Program-made: the position numbers and the translations under genes
Notes under the pieces: model-generated
Databases searched by the model: none
The model's input: the letters and a program-made list of their open reading frames with translations, nothing else
What the model was told of the DNA's origin: nothing
Assembly (NCBI RefSeq): GCF_054482525.1
Contig: NZ_CM137006.1
Length of the DNA: 64,000 bases
Direction: 5' to 3' (one strand)
Shown: piece after piece, positions 1 through 29,769 of the stretch
Layout of the letters: each line of letters opens with the position of its first letter
How positions within the stretch are numbered: position 1 is the stretch's first letter

Positions 1-2179
1 ATGGCCGTTAAAGCCTCCGGGCGTTTTGTCCCTCCGTCAGCATTTGCCGCAGGCACCGGTAAGGCGTTTACCGGTGCTTATGCATGGAACGCGCCACGCG
101 AGGCTGTCGGGCGCGAAAGACCCCTTACACGTGACGAGATGCGTCAGGTGCAAGGTGTTTTATCCACGATTAACCGCCTGCCTTACTTTTTGCGCTCGCT
201 GTTTACGTCACGCTATGACTACATCCGGCGCAATAAAAGCCCGGTGCACGGGTTTTATTTTCTCACATCCACTTTTCAGCGTCGTTTATGGCCGCGCATT
301 GAGCGTGTGAATCAGCGCCATGAAATGAACACCGACGCGTCGTTGCTGTTTCTGGCAGAGCGTGACCATTATGCGCGTCTGCCGGGGATGAATGACAAGG
401 AGCTGAAAAAGTTTGCCGCCCGTATCTCATCGCAGCTTTTCATGATGTATGAGGAACTCTGCGATGCCTGGGTGGATGCGCATGGCGAAAAAGAATCGCT
501 GTTTACGGATGAGGCGCAGGCTCACCTCTATGGTCATGTTGCTGGTGCTGCACGTGCTTTCAATATTTCCCCGCTCTACTGGAAAAAATACCGTAAAGGG
601 CAGATGACCACGAGGCAGGCATATTCTGCCATTGCCCGTCTGTTTAACGATGAGTGGTGGACCCATCAGCTTAAAGGCCAGCGTATGCGCTGGCATGAGG
701 CGTTACTGATTGCTGTCGGGGAGGTCAATAAAGACCGTTCTCCTTATGCTAGTAAACATGCCATTCGTGATGTGCGTGCACGCCGCCAGGCAAATCTGGA
801 ATTTCTTAAATCGTGTGATCTCGAAAACAGGGAAACCGGCGAGCGCATCGACCTTATCAGTAAGGTGATGGGCAGTATTTCTAATCCTGAAATTCGCCGG
901 ATGGAGCTGATGAACACCATTGCCGGTATTGAGCGTTACGCCGCAGCAGAGGGTGATGTGGGGATGTTTATCACGCTGACCGCGCCGTCAAAGTATCACC
1001 CGACACGTCAGGTCAGAAAAGGCGAAAGTAAAACCGTCCAGCTAAATCACGGCTGGAACGATGAGGCATTTAATCCAAAGGATGCGCAGCGTTATCTCTG
1101 CCGTATCTGGAGCCTGATGCGCACGGCATTCAAGGATAATGATTTACAGGTCTACGGTTTGCGTGTCGTCGAGCCACACCACGACGGAACGCCGCACTGG
1201 CATATGATGCTTTTTTGTAATCCGCGCCAGCGTAACCAGATTATCGAAATCATGCGTCGCTATGCGCTCAAAGAGGATGGCGATGAAAGAGGAGCCGCGC
1301 GAAACCGTTTTCAGGCAAAACACCTTAACCGGGGCGGTGCTGCGGGGTATATCGCGAAATACATCTCAAAAAACATCGACGGCTATGCACTGGATGGTCA
1401 GCTCGATAACGATACCGGCAGGCCGCTGAAAGACACTGCTGCGGCTGTTACCGCATGGGCGTCAACGTGGCGCATCCCGCAATTTAAAACGGTTGGTCTG
1501 CCGACAATGGGGGCTTACCGTGAACTACGCAAATTGCCGCGCGGCGTCAGCATTGCTGATGAGTTTGACGAGCGCGTCGAGGCTGCACGCGCCGCCGCAG
1601 ACAGTGGTGATTTTGCGTTGTATATCAGCGCGCAGGGTGGGGCAAATGTCCCGCGCGATTGTCAGACTGTCAGAGTCGCCCGTAGCCCGTCGGATGACGT
1701 TAACGAGTACGAGGAAGAGGTCGAGAGGGTGGTCGGCATTTACGCGCCGCATCTCGGCGCGCGTCATATTCATATCACCAGAACGACGGACTGGCGCATT
1801 GTGCCGAAAGTTCCGGTCGTTGAGCCTTTGACTTTAAAAAGCGGCATCGCCGCGCCTCGGAGTCCTGTCAATAACTGTGGAAAGCTCACCGGTGGTGATA
1901 CTTCGTTACCGGCTCCCACACCTTCTGAGCACGCCGCAGCAGTGCTTAATCTGGTTGATGACGGTGTTATCGAATGGAATGACCCGGAGGTCGTGAGGGC
2001 GCTCAGGGGCGCATTAAAACACGGGCTGAGAACGCCAAATCGTCAGCAAAGAAACAGAAGCCCGTTAAAACCGAATGAAATAGCGCCATCGGCCAGGCTG
2101 ACCCGGTCGGAACGAATGCAAATTACCCGTATCCGCGTTGACCTTGCTCAGAACGGTATCAGGCCGCAGCGATGGGAGC
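1..2179 (+). pseudogene. A: P2-like replication initiation protein gpA (rolling-circle HUH endonuclease), 3' end interrupted by IS3 after codon 726
   Basis: Translation begins MAVKASGRFVPPSAF and contains HUH motif PHWHMMLF and tyrosine motif GYIAKYISK; the provided ORF (1-2217) reads 12 codons into IS3 before stopping. Start at position 1 assumed from recalled P2 gpA N-terminus. Confidence 0.88.
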
Positions 2180-2244
2180 TGATCTTACCCAGCAATAGTG
2201 GACACGCGGCTAAGTGAGTAAACTCTCAGTCAGAGGTGACTCAC

Positions 2245-2544
2245 ATGACAAAAACAGTATCAACCAGTAAAAAACCCCGTAAACAGCATTCGCCTGAATT
2301 TCGCAGTGAAGCCCTGAAGCTTGCTGAACGCATCGGTGTTACTGCCGCAGCCCGTGAACTCAGCCTGTATGAATCACAACTCTACAACTGGCGCAGTAAA
2401 CAGCAAAATCAGCAGACGTCTTCTGAACGTGAACTGGAGATGTCTACCGAGATTGCACGTCTCAAACGCCAGCTGGCAGAACGGGATGAAGAGCTGGCTA
2501 TCCTCCAAAAGGCCGCGACATACTTCGCGAAGCGCCTGAAATGA
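2245..2544 (+). CDS. insE: IS3 transposase OrfA (InsE-like, 99 aa)
   Basis: [31 protein letters not shown]... helix-turn-helix/leucine-zipper OrfA of IS3; the provided ORF starts 3 codons upstream. Confidence 0.92.
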
Positions 2545-3407
2545 AGTATGTCTTTATTGAAAAACATCAGGCTGAGTTCAGCATCAAAGCAATGTGCCGC
2601 GTGCTCCGGGTGGCCCGCAGCGGCTGGTATACGTGGTGTCAGCGGCGGACAAGGATAAGCACGCGTCAGCAGTTCCGCCAACACTGCGACAGCGTTGTCC
2701 TCGCGGCTTTTACCCGGTCAAAACAGCGTTACGGTGCCCCACGCCTGACGGATGAACTGCGTGCTCAGGGTTACCCCTTTAACGTAAAAACCGTGGCGGC
2801 AAGCCTGCGCCGTCAGGGACTGAGGGCAAAGGCCTCCCGGAAGTTCAGCCCGGTCAGCTACCGCGCACACGGCCTGCCTGTGTCAGAAAATCTGTTGGAG
2901 CAGGATTTTTACGCCAGTGGCCCGAACCAGAAGTGGGCAGGAGACATCACGTACTTACGTACAGATGAAGGCTGGCTGTATCTGGCAGTGGTCATTGACC
3001 TGTGGTCACGTGCCGTTATTGGCTGGTCAATGTCGCCACGCATGACGGCGCAACTGGCCTGCGATGCCCTGCAGATGGCGCTGTGGCGGCGTAAGAGGCC
3101 CCGGAACGTTATCGTTCACACGGACCGTGGAGGCCAGTACTGTTCAGCAGATTATCAGGCGCAACTGAAGCGGCATAATCTGCGTGGAAGTATGAGCGCA
3201 AAAGGTTGCTGCTACGATAATGCCTGCGTGGAAAGCTTCTTTCATTCGCTGAAAGTGGAATGTATCCATGGAGAACACTTTATCAGCCGGGAAATAATGC
3301 GGGCAACGGTGTTTAATTATATCGAATGTGATTACAATCGGTGGCGGCGGCACAGTTGGTGTGGCGGCCTCAGTCCGGAACAATTTGAAAACAAGAACCT
3401 CGCTTAG
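2541..3407 (+). CDS. insF: IS3 transposase OrfB (InsF-like, 288 aa, DDE integrase domain)
   Basis: 288-aa ORF overlapping orfA by ATGA; contains HTDRGGQY...[14 protein letters not shown]-type motifs; expected to be expressed as an OrfAB fusion by -1 frameshift. Confidence 0.92.
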
Positions 3408-3440
3408 GCCTGTGTCCATATTACGTGGGTAGGATCAAGC

Positions 3441-3541
3441 TTGAGGTGCTGGCGCGTGGGGCAACGGTAAGCTATTGTGGGGAAAAATTTACGTATCCGG
3501 TCGCTGATGAGGGGGCGGGATTTGTAGTATGTAAATGGTGA
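3441..3541 (+). pseudogene. A: Displaced 3' remnant of gene A (last ~34 codons) downstream of IS3
   Basis: Joining 2179 to 3441 (removing IS3 and one TSD copy) continues the A frame as LEVLARGATVSYCGEKFTYPVADEGAGFVVCKW-stop at 3539-3541, giving ~760 aa, the expected gpA length. Confidence 0.6.
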
Positions 3542-3791
3542 AGGTAAGATGGGTTTTTGTCTGTAACGCATTGTTTTATATGGTTATATTTGATTTTTTG
3601 TAACGTGTGTTCATGTTTTCTTTGCTATGATTCATACTACTGCTATAGATGGCTAAAGATATAGGTTGTTGCTTAAATGTATATAGATAATTAAACGCCT
3701 TAATTTTTGATGAGATGTGTCATAAAGTGGAGTCTGTATGGCATAATTTTATGGGGCATGACATTTATACCATTCTTAAAAAGGAGATTAT

Positions 3792-5459
3792 ATGCTGATA
3801 ACTTTCTCAGGACAAAATTATAAGGCATACGAGAGTTTTAAGTTGTCTTTAAAGCCATTGACAATATTATTAGGGGCAAATAGTTGTGGGAAAAGTGCAT
3901 TAATTAACTCTTTGTTGATGTTTTCTCAGTCTGTTGATTCAATGTCATTGTCTGATTCTGCTTTAAGGTTGAATGGGCCTAAAGTTGGGATGGGAGAAGC
4001 ATTAAATATAATAAAAAATAAAGATGACTCCAAAACACTTAGTTTTAGTTTTGATTTTTCTGATAATACAGTGGTTAAAAATGGCATTGATACACTGAGG
4101 AGAGAAACTTTAGAATCATTTGCTATGATTATGCGATTCACAGTGCAAACGGTGAAAAATAATGACGCTTTGGTTACGAAAGCCAATGATTTAATAAATG
4201 AGGCTTCGAATGCGATCGTTAACTTTGACGAATTTGAGGAAGCTGAGTTAAAGGTTATCGCTGATAAGTTATGTCAATTACTTTTGCTTTTTAGGGAGGC
4301 GGGTGATAATGTCACATTTAGTCGTGCGACCTCAGAAAATTTACGCAAATTTATATATGAATGTCCATTAAAGAGAATAAAGGATTGTCTAACTAAAGTT
4401 ATTTCCATTTCAGGAAATAAATTGTCGGCTTCTAAGATAAGCTATGATTTCAAATATGATAAAAATAAAGGGGTGATAAAAGTTTCGAGGCTTGTTCTTT
4501 TAAATAAGAATGATGAAAAGATAGTTGAGCTATTACCAAAGAAGAATAATGTCGTTGTATTATCAGATGTTATCCCTCAAGAAGTGTTTAGAGGATGTCA
4601 GTCAGATATCTTAGAAATCATCAATCCTTATTCGCTGGGGCTGTTCCCTGTCAATAATGGGCGTGGTTTTTATGTTTTTTTTGGTAACTCTTATAATCCT
4701 GTTGTTAATTTTTTATCACATGTTGTTTCTTTGGGTGTATTAATGCTTTCAAAAATGTTTGATGGTGAAAATGTTAATCACGTCAGCCCATTGAGAGCAT
4801 TTCCTCAGCGATATTATCTATTAGACAAAACAGTCAATCATGCGCAGTTAAATTCTGCCGATGGATCTGAGTTAGCGGAGATCTTGAAGAAAAATACAAA
4901 AATAACAGAAAATATAAATCTTCTTCTGGCTGAATTTAATTTGGCTGTTGATATAGTTAAAGTTAATGACATAATTCATAAAATTGTTATAAACCAAGAT
5001 GCTGTTAATTTAGAGTTGACAGATGTGGGGTTTGGAATATCACAAGTATTGCCTGTCTTGGTTCAAGCTTATTTGTCACCAAAGGGTTCGATTACAATAA
5101 TAGAACAACCAGAAATACATTTGCATCCTAAAATGCAGGCATGGTTAACGGACGCATTAATTAAAATATCTATGCAAGAAAAGAAAGTATTTATTATTGA
5201 AACCCATAGCGATGCTTTAGTTAGACGAATTAGATTAAGAATTGTTGATGAATCGAGTGAACTTACAGAGGATCATGTTGCAATCTACCATCTTGAGCGC
5301 GATGAAGAGGGAACATCAACATTGCTGAATAGGGTGGCTGTAAATTCTGATGGAGATATCACATGGCCAAATGAATTTATGGATGTTGAGATTCAGGATA
5401 CAATTAGAATACAGGAGTTAAAGATACAGAAAATAATGAACTCAAAGGGGGTTCATTGA
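3792..5459 (+). CDS. ABC-type (AAA_15/AAA_21-like) ATPase, 555 aa; first gene of cargo operon in the P2 A-cos accessory slot; candidate defence-system ATPase
   Basis: Walker A GANSCGKS at aa 28-35 (nt 3873-3896); Walker B/D-loop ITIIEQPEIHLHP at aa 434-446 (nt 5091-5129); H-loop IIETHS; ~400-aa insert between Walker A and B; AAGGAG RBS 6 nt upstream; AT-rich codon usage unlike flanking phage genes. Confidence 0.75.
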   Translation: MLITFSGQNYKAYESFKLSLKPLTILLGANSCGKSALINSLLMFSQSVDSMSLSDSALRLNGPKVGMGEALNIIKNKDDSKTLSFSFDFSDNTVVKNGIDTLRRETLESFAMIMRFTVQTVKNNDALVTKANDLINEASNAIVNFDEFEEAELKVIADKLCQLLLLFREAGDNVTFSRATSENLRKFIYECPLKRIKDCLTKVISISGNKLSASKISYDFKYDKNKGVIKVSRLVLLNKNDEKIVELLPKKNNVVVLSDVIPQEVFRGCQSDILEIINPYSLGLFPVNNGRGFYVFFGNSYNPVVNFLSHVVSLGVLMLSKMFDGENVNHVSPLRAFPQRYYLLDKTVNHAQLNSADGSELAEILKKNTKITENINLLLAEFNLAVDIVKVNDIIHKIVINQDAVNLELTDVGFGISQVLPVLVQAYLSPKGSITIIEQPEIHLHPKMQAWLTDALIKISMQEKKVFIIETHSDALVRRIRLRIVDESSELTEDHVAIYHLERDEEGTSTLLNRVAVNSDGDITWPNEFMDVEIQDTIRIQELKIQKIMNSKGVH

Positions 5460-5460
5460 C

Positions 5461-6462
5461 ATGTATTGTGCAGTGTGTTTGTGTCCTGATTTTGTTGCGG
5501 CTAATATTTCTGATATTAATTTATTTAGTGGTTTTTTTATTGGAACCATTGTTAATGGTGAAAATCAGTTGATTTTAGATGCTGATGAAAAAATCCGTTT
5601 GGGCTATTTGAAATCTTGTAAAAATAACAAGGATTCTTTTTATCTGCTTCAGAAATGGGAGGCTGAATTATCTAAAGCTTCTTCAGGTAAAATATTGCTT
5701 GCACCAGTGAGTAATAGTACTGATGATATTAAGGATATAGTTGTTTGTGCAGTTGCTAACGCAGCTACCACCTTTGATAAACATATTGTGGTATTAGACA
5801 ATAATAGTTACTCTGGATATGTTGATGAATTAATTAGGCAAAGAGTTAATTTGTTAAATCTTAATAGTATAAGTTTAATATCAAAGGAGGATAGGGTGCA
5901 GCGTCCTTTGAATTTTATAAAGTTTGATAGCGATTTGTCTTGGGTGCTTCAAAGACTGGGGCGACGCTCTGCTAAAGGATATGGCGAAGATGATTTTAAT
6001 GATTTTATACGAGATATGTTATTAGCTAAAAATTATGAGGTAAAAGATCAAACTCGAGAAGGAGAGTCTCAATCGGGGAAAAAAGCCGGTGAGTTAGATC
6101 TTGTTATTGAAGATAGAGGAGAACTGTTTGCTATAATAGAAGCCTTGATTTTAAACTCTTTAGATCAAGCTAACATATTAAAGCATTATTCAAAGTTAAT
6201 TGATAACTATAATCCTATTCATGTCAAAAGGTTGTTTTTAATTGCTTATTATACAGGTGCAAAATTCGATGCCTGGTGTGAAAGATATATTGAGTATCTA
6301 AAGGGGATTACTTCGGTAGATATTGGTGTGGAATCTCATCAGATAGTTGAGGTTAAAGAAGTGGATACCCCGTACATAGGCTTAAGAAAAATTGAACATC
6401 ATTTTAGATATGCGGGGGAGCACTATTTTTGTATCCATTATGCAGTCAAAATGGCTCGGTGA
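5461..6462 (+). CDS. Hypothetical protein, 333 aa; partner of the ABC ATPase (translationally coupled); candidate effector of unknown fold
   Basis: ATG 1 nt after the ATPase stop (TGA-c-ATG); AT-rich; Cys cluster CAVCLC at N-terminus; acidic stretch GELDLVIEDRGELFAIIEAL; no motif I can assign confidently. Confidence 0.65.
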   Translation: MYCAVCLCPDFVAANISDINLFSGFFIGTIVNGENQLILDADEKIRLGYLKSCKNNKDSFYLLQKWEAELSKASSGKILLAPVSNSTDDIKDIVVCAVANAATTFDKHIVVLDNNSYSGYVDELIRQRVNLLNLNSISLISKEDRVQRPLNFIKFDSDLSWVLQRLGRRSAKGYGEDDFNDFIRDMLLAKNYEVKDQTREGESQSGKKAGELDLVIEDRGELFAIIEALILNSLDQANILKHYSKLIDNYNPIHVKRLFLIAYYTGAKFDAWCERYIEYLKGITSVDIGVESHQIVEVKEVDTPYIGLRKIEHHFRYAGEHYFCIHYAVKMAR

Positions 6463-6473
6463 TGTTTAAGATG

Positions 6474-6499
6474 AATGCACCTATAGGGTGCATCATTTT
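6474..6499 (+). terminator. Putative intrinsic terminator of the cargo operon
   Basis: Short hairpin tgcacc-tata-gggtgca followed by tcatttt immediately after the second cargo gene. Confidence 0.35.
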
Positions 6500-6599
6500 G
6501 CATGTTTAAATATGTTCTCTATGTATGTGCGCTAGGCTTGACTGGCGCGCTTATACTGTGTTTACGCAACTGCATTAAAACTGACCCATGAAGCGGGCG

Positions 6600-6618
6600 G
6601 GCGAGGCGGGGAAAGCAC
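6600..6618. other. cos: P2 cos site (19-nt cohesive-end sequence)
   Basis: GGCGAGGCGGGGAAAGCAC matches the P2 cohesive end as I recall it, located between the accessory slot and the portal gene Q as in P2. Confidence 0.8.
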
Positions 6619-6787
6619 TGCGCGCTGGCGGTGGTGCTGATTTTATTTTTTCAGCGTCTGAGCGCGTCGTGATGGCGTTTGGATTGTTCGCCGGGGCGTT
6701 GGTGTGTATGCGGGCTGTTTTGTGCGGTGGTGAGCGTGTGAGGGCGTGATGACGGGGTGTAAAAAAGCCGCCCGCAGGCGGCGATGT

Positions 6788-7822
6788 TCAGCCGTTGTCA
6801 GTGTCCAGTGAGTAGTTTTTAAAGCGGATGACCTCCTGACCGAGCCAGCCGTTTATCTCGCGGATCCTGTCCTGTAACGGGATAAGCTCATTGCGGACAA
6901 AGACCTTTGCCACTTTCTCAATATCACCCAGCGACCCGACGTTCTCCGGCTTGCCGCCCATCAACTGAAAAGGGATGCGGTGCGCGTCCAGCAGGTCTGC
7001 GGCGCTGGCTTTTTTGATATTAAAAAAATCGTCCTTCGTTGCCACTTCACTGAGCGGGATAATTTTAATACCGTCGGCTTTTCCCTGTGGGGCGTAGAGA
7101 AACAGGTTTTTAAAGTTGTTGCGGCCTTTCGACTTCACCATGTTTTCGCGAAGCATTTCGATATCGTTGCGATCCTGCACGGCATCGGTGACGTACATGA
7201 TGTATCCGGCATGTGCGCCGTTTTCGTAATACTTGCGGCGGAACAGCGTGGCCGACTCATTCAGCCAGGCAGAGTTAAGGGCGCTGAGATATTCCGGCAG
7301 GCCGTACAGCTCCTGATTGATATCCGGCTCCAGCAGGTGAAACACGGAGCCGGGCGCGAAAGGTGTCGGCTCGTTGAAGGATGGCACCCACCAGTAAACA
7401 TCCTCCTCCACGCCACGGCGGGTATATTTTGCCGGTGAGGTTTCCAGTCTGATGACCTTACCGGTAGTGCTGTAGCGCTTTTCCAGAAACGCATTACCGA
7501 ACACCAGAAAATCCAGCACAAAGCGGCTGAAATCCTGCTGGGAAAGCCACGGGTGCGGGATAAACGTTGAGGCCAGAATATTACGTTTGACGTAAATCGG
7601 TGAGCTGTGATGCACGGCAGCACGCAGGCTTTTTGCCAGACCGGTAAAGCTGACCGGTGGCTCATACCATCTGCCGTTACTGATGCACTCGACGTAATCC
7701 AGAATATCACGGCGGTCGAGTACCGGCACCGGCTCACCAAAGGTGAATGCCTCCATTTTCGGGGCGCTGGCAGTCATTGTTTTCACCGCTGGCTGCGGTG
7801 TTTTCCCTTTTTTCTTACTCAT
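6788..7822 (-). CDS. Q: P2-like portal protein gpQ (344 aa)
   Basis: 344-aa ORF MSKKKGKTPQPAVKT..., size and position (leftward, next to cos) match P2 Q. Confidence 0.92.
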   Translation of the reverse strand: MSKKKGKTPQPAVKTMTASAPKMEAFTFGEPVPVLDRRDILDYVECISNGRWYEPPVSFTGLAKSLRAAVHHSSPIYVKRNILASTFIPHPWLSQQDFSRFVLDFLVFGNAFLEKRYSTTGKVIRLETSPAKYTRRGVEEDVYWWVPSFNEPTPFAPGSVFHLLEPDINQELYGLPEYLSALNSAWLNESATLFRRKYYENGAHAGYIMYVTDAVQDRNDIEMLRENMVKSKGRNNFKNLFLYAPQGKADGIKIIPLSEVATKDDFFNIKKASAADLLDAHRIPFQLMGGKPENVGSLGDIEKVAKVFVRNELIPLQDRIREINGWLGQEVIRFKNYSLDTDNG

Positions 7823-16039: not shown

Positions 16040-16825
16040 TTATGAGTGATTTTTATTTGATGCTTTGTATTCTACAACCTTCTTATTGGCGTAAAGGAAT
16101 TTTGTATATGACAGGAATATAACCAGACCTGAAATGAAATAGATGAGGGATATTATTAATAATGCTTTTTTTTGGCTGTTATTATCTTTAATCTCCTGAC
16201 TTAACCATTCCGAGTCCTCCTCGTTTAGCTGTAAGAGATTATTGCAGGCGATCTCAGGAAGTGTGTCTTTTATAAATACGTTTCGTAGCCTCTTGCAATC
16301 GGCAAGGCTATAAGTTTTATTGAATTCAACTGTTTTATTGTTGAAGGATAAAAGAACTTTGTCACTATAAACATAGTACATCATATTTTTATATGGTATG
16401 CCTATGGCATCTCTTACTATAGCGGATTGTTTGTTGTGTATATAACATGCGAAGAGAATATAAATAATGCTGGACAGAATTACAATTATTGTTTTAATTA
16501 TGTGTGGTGGTTTTGTTATGTCACCCCAGAAGCGAGTAAGAAAAAAATACGATGTTTTTAGTTTTCCATCAATCAGCCCCTGCTGTATCATTCTCACATC
16601 TTCGATGCCTGATACATTGATTCCGTTAATTATTTTAAATAGTTGAATGTCGCGCCATTTTTTGTCGAGCATTTTTAACTTTCTGTCTGAATACTCAAAA
16701 TTGAAATGATGTGCAATAAACCTCATAAGATTACTTTTACCAAAGGTAACAAATGTTAATGCTATTAATAAAAATAGATACAAAGAGATAAACCACCACG
16801 CATTAGTCACATTATCACTGAACAT
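16040..16825 (-). CDS. Moron: predicted membrane protein (261 aa, about three hydrophobic segments) in the S-V intergenic slot
   Basis: Opposite strand to the late operons; strongly AT-rich, Lys/Asn/Ile-rich; hydrophobic segments WWFISLYLFLLIALTFVTF, IIKTIIVILSSIIYILFACYI, ALLIISLIYFISGLVIFLSY. Confidence 0.7.
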   Translation of the reverse strand: MFSDNVTNAWWFISLYLFLLIALTFVTFGKSNLMRFIAHHFNFEYSDRKLKMLDKKWRDIQLFKIINGINVSGIEDVRMIQQGLIDGKLKTSYFFLTRFWGDITKPPHIIKTIIVILSSIIYILFACYIHNKQSAIVRDAIGIPYKNMMYYVYSDKVLLSFNNKTVEFNKTYSLADCKRLRNVFIKDTLPEIACNNLLQLNEEDSEWLSQEIKDNNSQKKALLIISLIYFISGLVIFLSYTKFLYANKKVVEYKASNKNHS

Positions 16826-16908
16826 TACGCTCTCCTCGAATGTTGTATGGTCGTTCTACAAATGAATCCAGATAGCATAACTTTTATATATTGTGCAATC
16901 TCACACGC

Positions 16909-17544
16909 ATGAACACTCTCGCAAATACTCAGGAACTCGCGCGCGCACTGCGCAACATGATCCGCACCGGCCTTGTCGTCGAAACCGACCTTAATGCCGG
17001 TCGCTGCCGTGTGCAGACCGGCGGCATGTGCACCGACTGGCTTCAGTGGCTGACCCATCGCGCCGGGCGTTCGCGCACATGGTGGGCACCTTCCGTGGGG
17101 GAACAGGTGCTGATTCTGGCCGTGGGTGGTGAACTCGACACGGCGTTCGTTCTGCCGGGGATTTATTCCGGCGATAACCCCGCGCCGTCTGCGTCGGCGG
17201 ATGCCCTGCATATCCGTTTCCCTGACGGGGCGGTGATTGAGTATGAACCTGAAACCAGCGCGCTCACGGTAAGCGGAGTTAAAACGGCCAGCGTGACGGC
17301 TTCTGATTCTGTTACTGCCACGGTGCCGGTGGTCATGGTGAAAGCATCAACCCGCATCACCCTGGACACGCCGGAGGTGGTCTGCACCAACAGGCTGATT
17401 ACCGGCACGCTGGAAGTACAGAAGGGCGGGACGATGCGCGGCAACATTGAACACACCGGCGGTGAACTCTCATCAAACGGTAAGGTACTGCATACCCATA
17501 AACACCCCGGCGACAGCGGCGGCACAACAGGGAGTCCTCTATGA
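16909..17544 (+). CDS. V: P2-like baseplate spike protein gpV (211 aa)
   Basis: Start at MNTLANTQELARALRNMIRTG (ATG 16909); 211 aa. Confidence 0.9.
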   Translation: MNTLANTQELARALRNMIRTGLVVETDLNAGRCRVQTGGMCTDWLQWLTHRAGRSRTWWAPSVGEQVLILAVGGELDTAFVLPGIYSGDNPAPSASADALHIRFPDGAVIEYEPETSALTVSGVKTASVTASDSVTATVPVVMVKASTRITLDTPEVVCTNRLITGTLEVQKGGTMRGNIEHTGGELSSNGKVLHTHKHPGDSGGTTGSPL

Positions 17545-19405: not shown

Positions 19406-20700
19406 CAGTGAAATACTACGCCATTCTGACTAATCAGGGCGCAGCACGGCTGGCTAACGCGACGATGCTCGGCAGTAAGCTGAATCTGACGCAAATGGCC
19501 GTTGGTGATGCGAATGGTGTCTTGCCGACACCAGACCCGGCACAGACAAAACTGATTAATCAGAAACGCATCGCGCCGCTGAATCTTCTGAGTGTTGACC
19601 CGAACAACCAGAGCCAGATTATTGCGGAGCAAATCATCCCTGAGAACGAGGGCGGATTCTGGATCCGTGAGATTGGGCTTTATGATGATGAAGGCGTACT
19701 CATTGCGGTGGCGAACTGCCCGGAAACGTACAAACCGCAGTTACAGGAAGGCAGCGGTCGTACCCAGACTATCCGCATGATTCTGGTTGTCACGAATACC
19801 GAAGCCATCACGCTGAAAATCGACCCGTCGGTGGTACTGGCGACCCGTAAATACGTGGATGATAAAGTCCTGGAATTAAAGCTGTATGTGGATGACCAGA
19901 TGAGAAACCACATTGCCGCACAGGATCCTCATACCCAGTATGCACAGAAACATAATCCGACATTTACCGGAGAACCAAAAGCGCCGACGCCTGCCGCAGG
20001 AAATAACACCACGCGGATTGCGACCACTGCGTTTGTACAGGCCGCTATTACCGCTCTGATTAACGGTGCCCCTGACACGCTGGACACACTGAAAGAAATT
20101 GCCGCAGCTATCAACAATGACCCGAAATTCAGCACCACCATTAACAATGCGCTGTCAGGTAAGCAGCCACTGGATGAGACGCTGACTCATTTGAGTGGAA
20201 AGGATGTTGCCGGTCTTCTCGCATACCTTGGTTTGGGAGAAGGCTCTGCATTGCCGGTTGGTGTGCCTGTTCCGTGGCCTTCAGCCACTCCGCCAACGGG
20301 GTGGCTAAAATGTAACGGAGCAGTATTTTCTTCTGAAAAGTACCCAAATCTGGCAAAGGCTTACCCAACATTAAAATTACCAGATTTACGCGGTGAATTT
20401 ATTCGTGGCTGGGATGATGGGCGCGGGATTGACTCTGGTCGTAACTTATTATCTGCACAGAATGATGCAATTCAGAATATTGTTGGTTCTTTTGGGCGTA
20501 CCCAGCTTTTTAGAGACGTACTTAGTTCAGGGCCATTTAGTCAACATGGGCAAGTATTATCTACAGGTCTAAAGGAAGCCGAAATTATTGAGGGTTATGG
20601 CGCTTATAACTGGACATTCGACGCATCTCGCTCAGTTCGCACAGCATCTGAAACCCGCTCCCGTAACATCGCCTTTAATTATATTGTGAGGGCTGCATGA
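19402..20700 (+). CDS. H: Tail fibre protein gpH (432 aa): P2-like constant N-terminus fused to the currently expressed variable C-terminal cassette
   Basis: N-terminus MTVKYYAILTNQGAARLANA...; C-terminal region (WPSATPPTGWLKCNGAVFSSEKYPNLAKAY...LPDLRGEFIRGW) is tail-collar-like; inversion crossover site lies at codons ~276-280. Confidence 0.88.
   Translation: MTVKYYAILTNQGAARLANATMLGSKLNLTQMAVGDANGVLPTPDPAQTKLINQKRIAPLNLLSVDPNNQSQIIAEQIIPENEGGFWIREIGLYDDEGVLIAVANCPETYKPQLQEGSGRTQTIRMILVVTNTEAITLKIDPSVVLATRKYVDDKVLELKLYVDDQMRNHIAAQDPHTQYAQKHNPTFTGEPKAPTPAAGNNTTRIATTAFVQAAITALINGAPDTLDTLKEIAAAINNDPKFSTTINNALSGKQPLDETLTHLSGKDVAGLLAYLGLGEGSALPVGVPVPWPSATPPTGWLKCNGAVFSSEKYPNLAKAYPTLKLPDLRGEFIRGWDDGRGIDSGRNLLSAQNDAIQNIVGSFGRTQLFRDVLSSGPFSQHGQVLSTGLKEAEIIEGYGAYNWTFDASRSVRTASETRSRNIAFNYIVRAA
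20228..20242. repeat. Left inversion crossover site of tail-fibre segment (inside H)
   Basis: TTGGTTTGGGAGAAG; perfect inverted copy at 22160-22174; weak resemblance to gix/hix half-sites. Confidence 0.6.
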
Positions 20701-21302
20701 TAAGTAAAGCTGTATTAAATAATGAACTCATCGCCACAAAGGCCGGAGACATTACCGTTTATAATTATGATGGTGAAACACGGGAATATATTTCCACATC
20801 AACTGAATATCTTGCTGTGGGTGTCGGTATCCCGGCATGTTCCTGTTTAGATGCTCCTGGCTCATATAAAGCTGGTTATGCAATTTGCCGTTCTGCAGAT
20901 TTTAACTCATGGGAATATGTGCCAGACCATCGCGGTGAAATCGTCTATAGCACCGAAACAGGAGAATCAAAAGAAATCACAGTTCCGGGTGATTACCCTG
21001 AAAATACAACCACTATCGCCCCGTTAACGTCATACGATAAATGGGATGGTGAGAAATGGGTGACCGATACTGAGGCACAGCATAACGCCGCAGTAGACGC
21101 GGCAGAAGTACGGCGCCAGTCACTGATTGATGCTGCTATGGCTTCCATTAGTCTGATTCAGCTGAAATTGCAGGCCGGGCGGAAGCTGACGCAGGCAGAA
21201 ACAACCCGGCTTAACGCTGTGCTGGATTACATTGACGCGGTGACTGCAACAGATACCAGCACCGCGCCGGATGTCATCTGGCCTGAACTACCGGAGGCGT
21301 AG
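20697..21302 (+). CDS. G: Tail fibre assembly chaperone gpG (Tfa), currently expressed orientation
   Basis: 201-aa ORF directly after H; C-terminal ...TATDTSTAPDVIWPELPEA typical of Tfa proteins. Confidence 0.85.
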   Translation: MISKAVLNNELIATKAGDITVYNYDGETREYISTSTEYLAVGVGIPACSCLDAPGSYKAGYAICRSADFNSWEYVPDHRGEIVYSTETGESKEITVPGDYPENTTTIAPLTSYDKWDGEKWVTDTEAQHNAAVDAAEVRRQSLIDAAMASISLIQLKLQAGRKLTQAETTRLNAVLDYIDAVTATDTSTAPDVIWPELPEA

Positions 21303-21717
21303 GCCATTCAATATCTGGAGCACTGGCGGTATCAACCAGTTCCAGTGCGTCCAGATAATCCAGCCATAAATTATATTGTTCCAGCTCGTAACCTTTCAGA
21401 CGACCAATAGCAGCTTTGCCAGGCCACTGATGGGTATTGATGTAGGTATTGACTTCTGAAACCAAAGATATCTTTTTCATTTCAGCCGCCAGCATCTCAT
21501 CCTCTTTTGAAGGCGGCGGGGAATTAATCCATATTGGCCGTCCTGAACTGTCAGCGCCAATTTCTTTCCCTTCTGGATGCAGCCCAAGAAATTGCTCATA
21601 TGTTTCTCTGGTAATTTCAATAACATCATCAGGAAGCGTTCCCGCATCCTCATATTCTGGAAACAATTCTTGCAGATAAAAACTTTTACTTGCGGGTGAA
21701 AAGAATACTGAGTTCAT
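21274..21717 (-). CDS. Alternative tail fibre assembly chaperone (Tfa') for the inverted orientation
   Basis: 147-aa reverse-strand ORF; C-terminus ...DTASAPDIEWPTPPVVQAR parallels gpG; convergent with G and overlapping its 3' end. Confidence 0.75.
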   Translation of the reverse strand: MNSVFFSPASKSFYLQELFPEYEDAGTLPDDVIEITRETYEQFLGLHPEGKEIGADSSGRPIWINSPPPSKEDEMLAAEMKKISLVSEVNTYINTHQWPGKAAIGRLKGYELEQYNLWLDYLDALELVDTASAPDIEWPTPPVVQAR

Positions 21718-21719
21718 TC

Positions 21720-22159
21720 TTACCGTCCAATGATTAACGCTGAGACGCTGGTATCTGAAGGAAAGGCTGCATTCAGTGGTTTGTCGACTTTGAACACAAT
21801 CGTATTATTCCCCCTGACAGCGGCAAAAGAACAAACCGCCGTCGCGTATGAACCTGTAATATTACTGGATACACCACCATAAGCTGTTGTTGATACCAGA
21901 GGGATAACGCCCAGCACCTTATTAGGAAATACAAAGGGCAATGTGGCTGTGGCAATATAAGACTTATTAGAACCTGTAATGGCATAAGCATTATCAGTCA
22001 TTCCATTCATCGCCACTGGACCGCTTATACTTACAGTAACCATCTGAATGATTAGCCCGTCAGGTTGACGAATCACAAAATTTCCATTGCCACCAGTAAC
22101 CGTCCAGAAAGACATATCAGGGATTTGGTTTTCCCCGTTGCCCACATTTCGTTTTGCCG
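21720..22159 (-). CDS. Alternative (currently silent) tail-fibre C-terminal cassette, promoterless, expressed only after inversion
   Basis: Reverse-strand reading frame continuous from the right crossover site; shares the GLGE junction frame with H; no independent start expected. Confidence 0.65.
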
Positions 22160-22174
22160 CTTCTCCCAAACCAA
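22160..22174. repeat. Right inversion crossover site of tail-fibre segment
   Basis: CTTCTCCCAAACCAA, exact reverse complement of 20228-20242. Confidence 0.6.
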
Positions 22175-22241
22175 CGTTTAAGAAAATGCAGAGATTACGG
22201 CTAACTGGCATCATCCCCGGTTTTTATTCAGGGGATCCATC

Positions 22242-22835
22242 ATGCTTATTGGCTATGTCCGCGTGTCAACAAATGACCAGAATACGGAATTGCAGCGTAA
22301 CGCGCTGGAGTGTGCAGGATGTGAGCTTATTTTTGAGGATAAAATCAGCGGCACGAAGTCCGACCGACCGGGACTGAAAAAACTGCTCAGGACATTATCG
22401 GAGGGGGATACACTGGTGGTCTGGAAGCTGGACCGGCTGGGGCGTAGTATGCGGCATCTGGTCATTCTGGTTGAGGAACTGCGCGAACGCGGCGTTAATT
22501 TTCGCAGCCTGACGGATGCTATTGATACCAGCACGCCGATGGGGCGTTTTTTCTTTCATGTGATGGGTGCCCTGGCTGAAATGGAGCGAGAACTCATTGT
22601 CGAGAGGACACGCGCCGGACTGGAAGCGGCCAGAGCCAAAGGTCGTATTGGTGGCAGACGACCGAAACTCACCGCGAGTGAGTGGGAGCAGGCCGGGCGT
22701 TTGCTGGCTGCAGGGGAGTCACGTCAACGCGTGGCACTGATTTTTGATATTGGTCTGTCCACGCTCTATAAAAAATTTCCCTCATCAGCGACAAAGAATA
22801 AATTGTGTCATCCCTTAGCCAACCGGGACAAATAG
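22242..22835 (+). CDS. Serine recombinase, DNA invertase of the Pin/Gin/Hin/Cin family (197 aa)
   Basis: N-terminal catalytic domain MLIGYVRVSTNDQNTELQRNAL (active-site Ser in YVRVST), C-terminal HTH; positioned just outside the right crossover site. Confidence 0.9.
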   Translation: MLIGYVRVSTNDQNTELQRNALECAGCELIFEDKISGTKSDRPGLKKLLRTLSEGDTLVVWKLDRLGRSMRHLVILVEELRERGVNFRSLTDAIDTSTPMGRFFFHVMGALAEMERELIVERTRAGLEAARAKGRIGGRRPKLTASEWEQAGRLLAAGESRQRVALIFDIGLSTLYKKFPSSATKNKLCHPLANRDK

Positions 22836-27554: not shown

Positions 27555-28034
27555 ATGATGCTCGCGTTAGGTATGTTTGTTTTTATGCGCCAGACGCTGC
27601 CACACCAGACCATGCAGCGTGAATCAGATTATCGCTGGCCGTCAAATTCCCGTATCGGTAAACGGGATGCCTTTCAGTTTCTCGGTGTTGGCGAGGAAAA
27701 CATCACGCTTGCCGGTGTGCTTTATCCCGAGCTGACCGGCGGAAAGCTGACGATGACCACGCTCAGGCTGATGGCAGAGGAAGGTCGGGCGTGGCCGTTG
27801 CTGGATGGCACCGGCATGATTTACGGCATGTATGTCATCAGCAGGGTGAGTGAAACAGGGAGTATTTTCTTTGCAGACGGCACACCCCGAAAAATTGATT
27901 TTACGCTGTCGCTCACCCGCGTTGATGAATCACTGGCCGCGCTTTATGGCGATATCGGTAAACAGGCGGAATCGCTCATCGGTAAGGCTGGCAGTATGGC
28001 GACTAAATTCACGGGTATGACGGGGGCGGGATAA
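27555..28034 (+). CDS. U: P2-like tail protein gpU (159 aa)
   Basis: 159-aa ORF after T. Confidence 0.9.
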   Translation: MMLALGMFVFMRQTLPHQTMQRESDYRWPSNSRIGKRDAFQFLGVGEENITLAGVLYPELTGGKLTMTTLRLMAEEGRAWPLLDGTGMIYGMYVISRVSETGSIFFADGTPRKIDFTLSLTRVDESLAALYGDIGKQAESLIGKAGSMATKFTGMTGAG

Positions 28035-29197
28035 TGCTGGATGCGCTGACATTTGATGCAGGCAGTACGCTGACGCCGGATTACATGCTGATGCTCGACA
28101 GCAGGGATATTACCGGCAATATCAGCGACCGTCTGATGAGCATGACTCTGACGGATAACCGGGGCTTTGAGGCTGACCAGCTTGATATTGAACTGAACGA
28201 TGCCGACGGGCAGGTCGAACTGCCGGTTCGTGGCGCTGTCCTGACGGTGTATATCGGCTGGAAAGGTTTTGCCCTGGTATGCAAAGGGAAATTCACCGTT
28301 GATGAGGTAGAGCACCGGGGCGCGCCGGATGTGGTCACCATCCGGGCCCGGAGTGCAGATTTTCGTGGCACGCTCAATTCCCGCCGTGAAGGCTCCTGGC
28401 ATGACACCACGCTCGGTGCGATTGTTGAGGCGATAGCCTCCCGTAACAGGCTGGAAGCCAGTGTCGCTCCATCACTGGCCGGAATTAAAATCCCGCACAT
28501 CGACCAGTCGCAGGAGTCTGATGCTAAATTCCTGACCCGTCTTGCTGAACGCAACGGCGGTGAGGTGTCGGTAAAAATGGGAAAACTGCTGTTTCTCAAA
28601 GCGGGGCAGGGGGTGACGGCCAGCGGTAAAAAAATCCCGCAGATTACCATCACCCGCAGCGACGGCGACCGCCATCATTTTGCGATTGCTGACCGTGGAG
28701 CCTATACCGGCGTAACGGCAAAGTGGTTACACACCAAAGACCCGAAGCCACAAAAGCAGAAGGTAAAACTGAAGCGCAAAAAGAAAGAGAAACACCTGCG
28801 CGCACTGGAGCACCCGAAAGCAAAACCGGTCACGCAGAAGAAAGTGCCAAAAGTACCGGAAGCGCGCGAAGGTGAATACATGGCCGGTGAGGCTGACAAC
28901 GTTTTTGCCCTGACTACGGTATATGCCACGAAAGCGCAGGCCATGCGCGCCGCTCAGGCGAAGTGGGATAAACTGCAACGGGGTGTGGCGGAGTTCTCCA
29001 TCAGCCTGGCTACCGGTCGGGCAGATATTTACACGGAAACGCCGGTCAAGGTATCAGGCTTTAAGCGCGTCATAGACGAGCAGGACTGGACAATCACTAA
29101 GGTGACACATTTTCTGAATAATAGCGGCTTCACGACGTCCTTAGAGCTTGAGGTCAGGCTTTCTGATGTGGAGTACGAAACAGAAGATGATGAGTGA
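28034..29197 (+). CDS. D: P2-like tail protein gpD (387 aa)
   Basis: 387-aa ORF after U. Confidence 0.9.
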   Translation: MLDALTFDAGSTLTPDYMLMLDSRDITGNISDRLMSMTLTDNRGFEADQLDIELNDADGQVELPVRGAVLTVYIGWKGFALVCKGKFTVDEVEHRGAPDVVTIRARSADFRGTLNSRREGSWHDTTLGAIVEAIASRNRLEASVAPSLAGIKIPHIDQSQESDAKFLTRLAERNGGEVSVKMGKLLFLKAGQGVTASGKKIPQITITRSDGDRHHFAIADRGAYTGVTAKWLHTKDPKPQKQKVKLKRKKKEKHLRALEHPKAKPVTQKKVPKVPEAREGEYMAGEADNVFALTTVYATKAQAMRAAQAKWDKLQRGVAEFSISLATGRADIYTETPVKVSGFKRVIDEQDWTITKVTHFLNNSGFTTSLELEVRLSDVEYETEDDE

Positions 29198-29278
29198 TGT
29201 CTATTATTTATCTGTTTGTTTTATAAGGATAAATTAACTAAAATGGCACCATCAACAAAACCGGAAGAGGTGCTCGCG

Positions 29279-29497
29279 ATGTTTCATTGTCCTTTATGCC
29301 AGCATGCCGCACATGCGCGTACAAGCCGCTATATCACTGACACGACAAAAGAGCGTTATCACCAGTGCCAGAACGTGAATTGCAGCGCCACGTTCATCAC
29401 TTATGAGTCGGTACAGCGATACATCGTGAAGCCGGGAGAAGTCCACGCCGTAAGGCCGCACCCGTTGCCGTCAGGGCAGCAAATTATGTGGATGTAA
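29279..29497 (+). CDS. ogr: Ogr zinc-finger late-gene transcriptional activator (72 aa)
   Basis: MFHCPLCQHAAHARTSRYITDTTKERYHQCQNVNCSATF with Cys4 zinc finger; the provided ORF starts 21 codons upstream. Confidence 0.9.
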   Translation: MFHCPLCQHAAHARTSRYITDTTKERYHQCQNVNCSATFITYESVQRYIVKPGEVHAVRPHPLPSGQQIMWM

Positions 29498-29510
29498 TTA
29501 CATACAGGAA

Positions 29511-29534
29511 GCCCCTCAGTCGAGGGGCTTTTTT
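29511..29534 (+). terminator. Rho-independent terminator after ogr
   Basis: gcccctc-agtc-gaggggc hairpin followed by TTTTTT. Confidence 0.7.
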
Positions 29535-29598
29535 GTCGATGTGGTCAATGTGTGGACGTGACCAGAAATAAATCCTTTTATTTCATTGTATTACGCGT

Positions 29599-29625
29599 AA
29601 AAAATAAGCCCGTGTAAGGGAGATT
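29599..29625. other. attR: P2 att core (prophage right junction, attR) next to yegQ
   Basis: AAAAAATAAGCCCGTGTAAGGGAGATT matches the 27-bp P2 attachment core as I recall it; lies between ogr and the first host gene. Confidence 0.75.
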
Positions 29626-29769
29626 ACACAGGCTAAGGAGGTGGTTCCTGGTACAGCTAGCATTTTATGGGTTATGTTTTTCAGCGAAACGGATGATAAC
29701 CTTAATAAATGCAGCTGTATGTGATCGGTTTCTAAGAATTTTCCATCCGGGAAAAATAATCGAAATTAA

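Follow-up and report, generated by a model that had tools for sequence, protein, structure and literature searches.

The DNA analysed here, a stretch of 64,000 nucleotides of contig NZ_CM137006.1 (assembly GCF_054482525.1) that is called the window below, carries a P2-like (Peduovirus) prophage at the yegQ/yegR (cyaR) attachment site, and the replication-initiator gene A of this prophage is interrupted by a complete IS3 element. Because the window begins at the ATG of gene A, the left arm of the prophage was seen in sister contigs only. The features of the locus are as follows (window positions, strand, description).

1..2217, + strand, interrupted replication-initiator gene A; ORF of 738 aa made of native residues 1-727 and 11 IS3-coded residues, with its stop in the left end of IS3.
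1851..1870, + strand, P2-type ori nick region (GCGCCTCG/GAGTCCTGTCAA), the 'nick site at ori' of the P2 record; nick at 1859/1860; intact.
2177..2179, no strand, left copy of the target-site duplication, AGC.
2180..3437, + strand, complete IS3, with its transposase genes in the same direction as gene A and the cargo.
2180..2218, + strand, left terminal inverted repeat (IRL) of IS3, matching the right one at 28 of 39 outer positions; it holds the stop codon that terminates truncated gpA.
2245..2544, + strand, IS3 orfA, 99 aa, ATG at 2245.
2507..2511, + strand, A-AAA-G slippery motif, proposed site of the programmed -1 frameshift that joins OrfA and OrfB.
2541..3407, + strand, IS3 orfB, 288 aa, in the -1 frame relative to orfA, with a DDE/rve integrase-like domain.
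3399..3437, + strand, right terminal inverted repeat (IRR) of IS3, placed by comparison of the terminal repeats.
3438..3440, no strand, right copy of the target-site duplication, AGC.
3441..3541, + strand, 3' end of gene A cut off by the IS (codons 728-759 and the stop at 3539-3541); untranslated now, encoding the predicted second half of helix 2 and a beta-hairpin.
3542..3791, + strand, AT-rich intergenic region of 250 bp upstream of the cargo, common to an IS-free relative.
3792..6462, + strand, two-gene cargo in the variable locus after gene A (an ATPase and a 333-aa protein); context, outside the IS event.
3792-5459, + strand, cargo gene 1, ATPase of 555 aa (AAA_15/AAA_21).
5461-6462, + strand, cargo gene 2, protein of 333 aa with no family match.
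29599..29625, + strand, attR core, 27 of the 28 bp of the P2 attP core; right end of the IS-bearing element.

The inserted element measures exactly 1258 bp, its ends read TGATCTTACCC... and ...GGGTAGGATCA, and its inverted repeats have the form TGATC...GATCA, starting with TG and ending with CA. It matched IS3 copies from other E. coli chromosomes at 1258/1258 positions; PGAP names these copies 'IS3-like element IS3 family transposase, programmed frameshift', and 4075 records had a best match of at least 99%. The A-AAA-G motif is what we take, from general knowledge of IS3, to be the exact frameshift position, and the 387-aa fused OrfA-OrfB product, as called in sister contig L003, gave Pfam matches to HTH_Tnp_1, HTH_21 and rve. 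By its length, TG/CA repeats, overlapping orfA and orfB with rve, 3-bp duplication and sequence identity, the element is an IS3. Compared with the E. coli type element of the IS3 family, it shares the sequence, the repeats, the -1 frameshift arrangement of orfA/orfB and the 3-bp duplication, and only the insertion site is peculiar to this lineage.

An IS-free counterpart was found in the prophage of E. coli ARS-C301 (NZ_CP132983.1), which occupies the same chromosomal site and has the same ATPase and 333-aa cargo and the same target sequence. It reads ...GATGGGAGCTTGAGG..., with one AGC at the insertion position, and it was collinear with the window after in-silico excision of the IS, at 98.66% identity over 5539 bp. 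A 3-bp match has a chance probability of 1/64; chance is excluded here because only one AGC stands at the unoccupied site of ARS-C301 and because other identical IS3 copies are flanked by 3-bp repeats of their own (GAC/GAC, GTA/GTA), so that AGC/AGC is a true target duplication of IS3. When positions 1-2179 were joined in silico to 3441-3541, the result was one open frame of 759 codons, and the IS-excised gpA aligned end to end with P2 gpA (761 aa), across the junction, at 97% identity. Unlike the window, ARS-C301 lacks IS3. Its annotation marks gene A as frameshifted, and the A reading frame meets a stop near codon 664; this is an independent lesion of the same gene.

Neither IS/gene-A junction was present in 5426 complete E. 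coli genomes, a set that does not include the source genome, although roughly 1600 complete genomes of the species have a P2-type A gene. The exact 738-aa product was found on 6 contigs of public draft assemblies (GCA_029445955.1, GCA_036915595.1 and four others), and the IS3 allele is rare. The full IS is spanned by an independent 45-kb contig, with a single difference from the window in 8217 positions, and contig L004 ends within IS3. With its perfect target duplication and an IS copy that has identical counterparts in other genomes, the insertion is simple and evolutionarily recent. It is restricted to a small lineage, and an IS3 landing in a prophage gene is an ordinary and well-understood type of event. 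The original prediction had described a complete 1258-bp IS3, genuine AGC repeats, restoration of full-length gpA with its stop at 3539-3541 upon removal, and a recent and simple insertion, and these claims agreed with the comparisons above. It had also named two outcomes that would speak against it, a restored gpA C-terminus that fails to align with P2-family gpA and AGC triplets that are no true duplication, and neither was obtained.

We then considered what the insertion leaves of gpA. Codon 727 of gene A spans the junction and is still read as Leu, after which translation continues into the IS-coded tail ILPSNSGHAAK, and 32 native residues (728-759) are lost. The truncation had thus been correctly foreseen, as 727 native residues followed by 11 IS-coded ones show, while the number of missing codons, put at about 34, had to be corrected to 32. 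Because the ORF stops at 727+11 and the C-terminal module is split by the IS, gene A of the window is a disrupted gpA allele and not an intact member. Pfam Phage_GPA (PF05840) matched aa 133-462 of gpA (E 7e-123), and alignment with P2 showed that the HUH motif EPHHDGTPHWH and Y450/Y454 (GYIAKYI) are conserved. The paired tyrosines of gpA have an active-site role, and the catalytic HUH/tyrosine region is left intact by IS3. P2 gpA is likewise a PF05840 HUH rolling-circle initiator with ori within its coding sequence; the IS-excised protein covers 759 of its 761 residues and has the same nick region, whereas in the allele of the window residues 728-759 are missing and 11 foreign residues form the C-terminus.

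The segment RWELExLARGATVxYxxxKFxYP was conserved among 119 gpA homologues at 74-97% identity, with the last ~10 gpA residues variable in the alignment. The C-terminal segment was kept in 83/85 phage records, among them those of the plaque-forming phages P2, Wphi and L-413C, and was also found in representatives down to about 31-35% identity. The full-length AlphaFold2 model of gpA had a mean pLDDT of 47 and was unusable beyond the C-terminal segment, and hence residues 658-759 were modelled; with a more diverse alignment, pLDDT reached 88-97 for residues 698-747, with a helix at 724-731 and strands at 735-738 and 741-744. Residues ~698-747 are thus confidently predicted to form a conserved helix/helix/beta-hairpin module, half of which consists of the lost residues. 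In this model, on which the structural argument for a gpA defect rests, the insertion of IS3 cuts helix 2 midway and removes the beta-hairpin.

A Foldseek search of the module against PDB gave no fold assignment (best E 5.6), and no counterpart of the part from WELE to the hairpin was detected by BLASTP in phage 186 gpA (E = 2.6). When 186 gpA was inspected by eye, the first helix (LSRRERRELT) alone looked related to the P2 module. Large proteins among the remote matches, such as P0150 (1675 aa, with 8 short stretches that match the hairpin), were set aside as probable repeat-motif noise. The gpA of 186, a viable relative, lacks the hairpin part, so that members of the wider family can initiate rolling-circle replication without it. 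No experiment or paper showing a requirement for the last 32 residues of P2 gpA was found in the literature sought.

In the P2 record, on whose GenBank annotation the position of ori rests, the nick is at nt 29892, which corresponds to nt 1859 of gene A. The 142 bp around the nick (window 1829-1970) were identical to P2. Since the nick site is intact, identical to P2 and 320 bp upstream of IS3, the origin appears undisrupted by the insertion. The expectation that the P2 origin maps within the 3' part of A therefore held, and the suggestion that IS3 strikes the origin did not.

The remainder of the prophage was compared with P2 by tblastn of 38 P2 proteins. The genes were collinear and had no stops or frameshifts, except at the mosaic tail-fibre and cargo loci. 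Within the window, every P2 gene from Q to ogr was full length and free of stops, and the late genes were mostly 92-100% identical; weaker matches were obtained for orf30 (84%), I (82%), C (65%), cox (84%) and orf81 (89%), only the N-terminal part of H was matched (42%), and G and Fun(Z) gave no tblastn match. In sister contig L003, which has 1 mismatch in 8217 bp against the window, int, C, cox, B and orf78 to orf83 were full length. This contig also has the other att core (2316-2343), so that both att cores are present. By these comparisons the element has the gene order and content of P2 (int C cox B A, cos, Q P O N M L X Y K R S V W J I H G FI FII E T U D ogr, bounded by att cores), and the original view that the rest of the prophage is intact was supported for the P2 genes, which are full length by comparison with the P2 proteins. 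The prophage with the IS is ~33,283 bp long compared with 33,593 bp for P2, and because it is still smaller than P2 (about 33.3 vs 33.6 kb), the IS-bearing genome should remain of packageable size.

E. coli K-12 carries a decayed P2 remnant at the same chromosomal site. Together with the pool of defective prophages in O157 Sakai (PMC2669165), it offers a likeness to the present case, namely a single mobile-element insertion in a lifecycle gene with other functions kept. Unlike those defective prophages, the one studied here has one clean lesion and an intact remainder, which places it at the earliest stage of decay and not among the remnants.

Taken together, the comparisons show that a single ordinary E. 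coli IS3 copy transposed into codon 727 of gene A and duplicated AGC, and that the last 32 residues of gpA were swapped for 11 IS-coded ones with the nick site and the HUH/tyrosine region untouched. We consider it probable, though well short of certain, that this recent event of a small lineage left an impaired or inactive initiator. P2 gpA acts in cis and P2 late transcription depends on replication; therefore, if the truncated initiator is impaired, the derepressed prophage would fail to amplify and would give few or no progeny. It would still supply immunity, the cargo genes and all late genes; the latter could serve, for instance, a P4-type satellite, which according to classical genetics does not need P2 gene A. 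P2-type prophages are, as far as we know, not SOS-inducible. A replication defect of the prophage is plausible on the basis of sequence comparison and structure prediction. Favouring such a defect, the 32 lost residues lie within the conserved and confidently folded C-terminal module; on the other side stand the intact catalytic motifs and ori, a Pfam domain that ends at aa 462 and the 186 gpA that has no hairpin.

The same observations bear on the possibility that the truncation is tolerated, in which gpA(1-727)+11 would nick ori, rolling-circle replication would work, the prophage would be fully or nearly viable and IS3 would be a passenger. This is a serious possibility, yet an unlikely one. 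It draws on the integrity of the aa 133-462 domain, the Y450/Y454 region and the ori nick, on a genome that stays packageable with the IS, on the example of 186, and on the lack of decay in other genes, as expected of a phage still under selection. However, conservation of the lost segment reaches down to homologues at about 31-35% identity and nearly all phage records retain it (83/85), the break interrupts a helix in a module whose pLDDT exceeds 88, and none of the sequenced genomes from phage particles in the collection has an IS at this position of gpA.

It is also conceivable, although doubtful, that the insertion was an adaptive 'locking-in' and not neutral damage, where loss of the gpA module would block replication and host killing while immunity, the ATPase cargo and P4 helper capacity are kept. 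On this view the module would be specific to the P2 lineage and might, for example, recruit gpB/DnaB or another partner in the replisome on which phages of the 186 type do not rely. The only other genome with this cargo, that of ARS-C301, has its independent gene A frameshift, which fits recurrent selection against A, with n = 2.

At the cargo locus, P2 has orf91, tin and old after A, whereas the window has the two-gene cargo instead. For the 333-aa protein, PADLOC and PHROGs returned nothing and Pfam gave only a faint match to PDDEXK_4 (E 0.11). IS3 had been proposed to influence transcription of this operon, and a mainly regulatory role, with read-through or outward transcription raising the ATPase cargo operon and explaining the persistence of the allele, would be compatible with the shared orientation of IS3 and cargo and with the presence of just a weak hairpin with a 5-bp stem (3501-3518) in the stretch from orfB to the start of the cargo, which lies 354 bp downstream. 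PMC12095673 and PMC8860574 also cite an early report of IS3 as a 'mobile promoter' (Charlier et al. 1982). However, neither a consensus scan nor a weighted scan found a promoter-like site at or across the right IS junction, and a hybrid or outward promoter at this end was rejected on these empty scans. A reporter assay detected no promoter activity in the wild-type 150-bp right end of IS3, whose putative outward promoter was suggested to be masked by a pausing site (PMC12095673). Furthermore, the native 250-bp region upstream of the cargo is kept and matches the IS-free relative, with moderate sigma-70-like matches only (e.g. TTGTCT-16-TATGGT at 3557-3584). The proposed influence on the cargo therefore found no support in the sequence, and we regard the regulatory account as improbable.

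Least credible of all is the explanation that IS3 is one of many lesions in an old, decaying cryptic prophage or an artefact of assembly. In its favour, K-12 has a P2 remnant at this chromosomal site, short-read assemblies are often broken by IS elements, and L004 is a contig that stops inside the IS. It is already contradicted by the collinear 38 P2 genes, free of stops and frameshifts outside the mosaic tail-fibre and cargo loci, by the two att cores and by the independent contig that spans the IS.

Returning to the preferred reading, a recent IS3 insertion that probably impairs the initiator, the prophage should be scored in annotation as structurally complete with a disrupted replication initiator, and neither as 'intact' nor as 'ori-disrupted'. 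As a by-product, the C-terminal 50 residues of P2-type gpA emerge as a conserved predicted module, for which a natural or engineered allele could be used as a probe. If the truncation is inactivating, the host would keep superinfection immunity, a candidate defence cargo and late genes that satellites can use, without the risk of productive lytic growth, and the insertion would represent a textbook first step of prophage domestication.

The insertion in gene A of the P2-like prophage was a block of 1258 bp, which starts at 2180 as TGATCTTACCCAGC and finishes at 3437 as GGGTAGGATCA. Its ends are imperfect inverted repeats (28 of the 39 outermost positions match), and it contains the following parts:

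2245-2544, IS3 orfA, 99 codons
2541-3407, IS3 orfB, 288 codons, in the -1 frame relative to orfA
2507-2511, A-AAA-G motif of IS3

All 1258 positions were identical to copies in other E. coli chromosomes, which RefSeq labels 'IS3-like element IS3 family transposase, programmed frameshift', and no second IS3 left end was found in the window. The triplet AGC abuts the element on both sides (2177-2179 before, 3438-3440 after); a 3-bp repeat has a 1/64 probability by chance alone. Window 1-6800, after deletion of IS3 and one AGC, was compared with the IS-free related prophage of E. coli ARS-C301 (NZ_CP132983.1), and the two were collinear (98.66% identity, 5539 bp, one gap). The empty ARS-C301 site reads GATGGGAGCTTGAGG, with AGC once only, and sequence-identical IS3 copies in other genomes bear their own 3-bp flanking repeats (GAC/GAC, GTA/GTA), so AGC/AGC is a real target duplication, as the original prediction had held. 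These results showed that IS3 inserted in a simple event that duplicated 3 bp of its target. The element is type IS3, unchanged, its host gene is closely related to gene A of P2, and the overall account of the structure (IS3, duplication, truncation) is nearly certain.

Window position 1 is the ATG of this P2-type replication gene. The interrupted frame runs from 1 to 2217 (738 aa); rejoining without the IS yields a frame of 759 codons that stops at 3539-3541. The rejoined gpA, the rolling-circle replication initiator, aligned end to end with P2 gpA (761 aa) at 97% identity, unbroken at the junction (RPQRWELE|VLARGATV), so that the expected match of the C-terminus to P2 was borne out. Interrupted gpA keeps residues 1-727, codon 727 spanning the junction with its Leu unchanged, followed by the appended ILPSNSGHAAK. 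The truncation was thus correctly foreseen, but 32 native residues are gone rather than about 34 codons. Several E. coli chromosomes in RefSeq matched at the same offset (NZ_CP178438.1, NZ_CP104516.1, NZ_CP180694.1, NZ_CP151026.1 and NZ_CP047600.1 among them), so that their records too begin at gpA, suggesting that assembly-rotation software chooses a prophage 'replication' gene as chromosome start.

The exact 738-aa truncated product was present on six contigs in public draft assemblies. The sister contig L003 (GCA_029445955.1) covers the entire IS, with a single difference from the window in 8217 positions; L004 (GCA_036915595.1) stops within the IS and has 0 mismatches in its 2646-bp overlap with the window. 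Neither IS/gene-A junction was found among 5426 complete E. coli genomes. This absence, the perfect duplication and the identity of the IS3 to other copies agree with the proposed recent, simple event: the insertion is one clean, evolutionarily recent lesion, inherited by a small lineage.

In the P2 GenBank record, gene A spans 28034-30319 and the 'nick site at ori' is set at 29892, or nucleotide 1859 counted from the start of A. Window and P2 run collinearly from the A start codon onwards, which puts the nick at window 1859/1860. Both GCGCCTCGGAGTCCTGTCAA and the whole 1829-1970 stretch were identical between the window and P2, and IS3 sits 320 bp downstream of the nick. The origin was correctly placed within the 3' portion of A; the suggestion that IS3 hits it did not hold, since the nick region is uninterrupted. 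Cis elements of the minimal origin could in principle reach as far as IS3; HUH rolling-circle initiators generally have short origins.

The Pfam domain Phage_GPA is limited to aa 133-462, and the HUH motif and GYIAKYI tyrosines are undamaged in interrupted gpA. Across 119 homologues (74-97% identity), RWELExLARGATVxYxxxKFxYP was well conserved and the final ~10 residues were variable. With the last 80 gpA residues as tblastn query, the segment was present in 83 of 85 phage records, including P2, Wphi, L-413C and, at about 50% identity, Yersinia phages. Among representatives of 50%-identity clusters it could be traced down to about 31-35% identity, with S697, R699, I711, L715, I720, W725, L727 and L730 invariant or nearly so. 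AlphaFold2 performed poorly on full-length gpA (mean pLDDT 47), while a model of 658-759 reached pLDDT 88-97 over residues 698-747, with predicted helices at 702-717 and 724-731 and a beta-hairpin at 735-738/741-744. Conservation and model together indicate that the C-terminus is other than a disordered tail, and in the model the break after residue 727 splits the second helix midway and the hairpin is lost. Foldseek found no solved structure resembling this module (best E 5.6). Eight separate stretches of P0150, a protein of 1675 aa, match the hairpin segment (query residues 65-88), probably a repeat-motif coincidence of beta-hairpin repeats.

The remaining prophage was surveyed by tblastn with 38 P2 proteins as queries. 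Q, P, O, N, M, L, X, Y, K, lysA/B/C, R, S, orf30, V, W, J, I, FI, FII, E, T, U, D and ogr were full length in the window, and tblastn found no stops or gaps in them. Departures from P2 were confined to tail-fibre genes, H matching in its N-terminal part only and G giving no tblastn match. Apart from these two, the structural and lysis genes were intact as predicted, as was the cargo. The left arm, outside the window, was read from L003, where yegS, yegR, attL, int, C, cox, orf78, B and orf80 to orf83 were all full length. The att cores are:

L003 2316-2343, att core
window 29599-29625, att core

With IS3 the prophage measures ~33,283 bp vs 33,593 bp for P2; being slightly smaller, it respects the packaging capacity. 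These results showed that ori, catalytic region, other phage genes and cargo are all intact. The immunity repressor C (L003 3551-3850) shares just 65% identity with its P2 counterpart, and Cox 84%; judged by sequence, heteroimmunity of the prophage to P2 is probable. Neither the left arm nor the stretch downstream of gene A showed a 186-type tum/LexA module. Further features of the window were:

16825-17211, minus strand, 128-aa ORF between S and V, adjoining the orf30 homologue, no PHROG match
20216-20242 and 22160-22186, 27-nt inverted repeats TTCTCGCATACCTTGGTTTGGGAGAAG / CTTCTCCCAAACCAACGTTTAAGAAAA, resembling gix/cix/hix crossover sites
21274-22214, minus strand, alternative tail-fibre C-terminus and chaperone genes, enclosed by the 27-nt repeats
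22242-22835, Hin/Gin-type DNA invertase gene (PHROG 125, E 6e-101)

The orf30 homologue (16040-16825) has 84% identity to P2 Orf30, and P2 has orf30 alone there. The 20216-22835 region reads as an invertible tail-fibre segment, whereas P2 carries Fun(Z) at this locus.

Downstream of gene A lies the cargo:

3792-6462, two-gene cargo in the variable locus following gene A

IS3 and cargo have the same orientation, with 354 bp from the IS3 end to the cargo start codon, comprising the 101-bp orphaned A end and then a 250-bp AT-rich region with moderate sigma-70-like matches only. The single hairpin in the spacer (3501-3518) is weak. It had been proposed that IS3 could influence cargo transcription. 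This found no support, as no promoter-like site was found across the right IS junction and a massively parallel reporter study picked the 150-bp IS3 right end as a parent sequence for its lack of detectable promoter activity (PMC12095673). The authors put forward a pausing site as what masks a putative outward promoter of IS3, and cite work of 1982 that described IS3 as a mobile promoter (PMC12095673). Transcription starting at the weak transposase promoter could in principle read through into the cargo, though nothing here favours it. Cargo gene 1 encodes an ATPase of 555 aa (AAA_15/AAA_21), which in PADLOC matched components of candidate systems best (NsnB 1.9e-52, HEC-03B, PDC-M55A, AriA 1e-27). 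Its 333-aa partner had no PADLOC or PHROG match and a faint PD-(D/E)XK match only (E 0.11), and the cargo looks like an uncharacterised defence pair of ATPase and putative nuclease. A close copy (97%) was found in ARS-C301 alone among complete E. coli genomes. Gene A of ARS-C301 is annotated as frameshifted (4122-6400 of its locus L002), with a stop in the A frame at ~codon 664. The sister prophage carries a gene A lesion of its own, independent of the IS3 one, and it is mildly interesting that the only other genome with the cargo has its own gene A frameshift.

These results showed that gpA is truncated inside a conserved, folded module, and with the module lost, initiation, or a coupled step, would probably be impaired. 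The rival reading is that truncated gpA remains functional. Phage 186 counts as a caution here: this viable relative has a 694-aa gpA, with ori likewise within A, in which no counterpart of the WELE...hairpin part was detectable. We nevertheless lean moderately towards a functional defect. P2 gpA is preferentially cis-acting and P2 late transcription requires replication, so a derepressed A-defective prophage would not be expected to amplify or lyse efficiently. In classical P2/P4 genetics, P4 requires the late genes of its helper and not A or B, and the prophage would therefore be expected to stay a competent P4 helper. Derepression by P4 epsilon and Delta/Ogr activation of late genes are described in a source whose coverage does not include A (PMC7552001). 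The case is a standard IS strike on a prophage lifecycle gene and adds little new; its mildly interesting by-product is a conserved C-terminal module in P2-type gpA.
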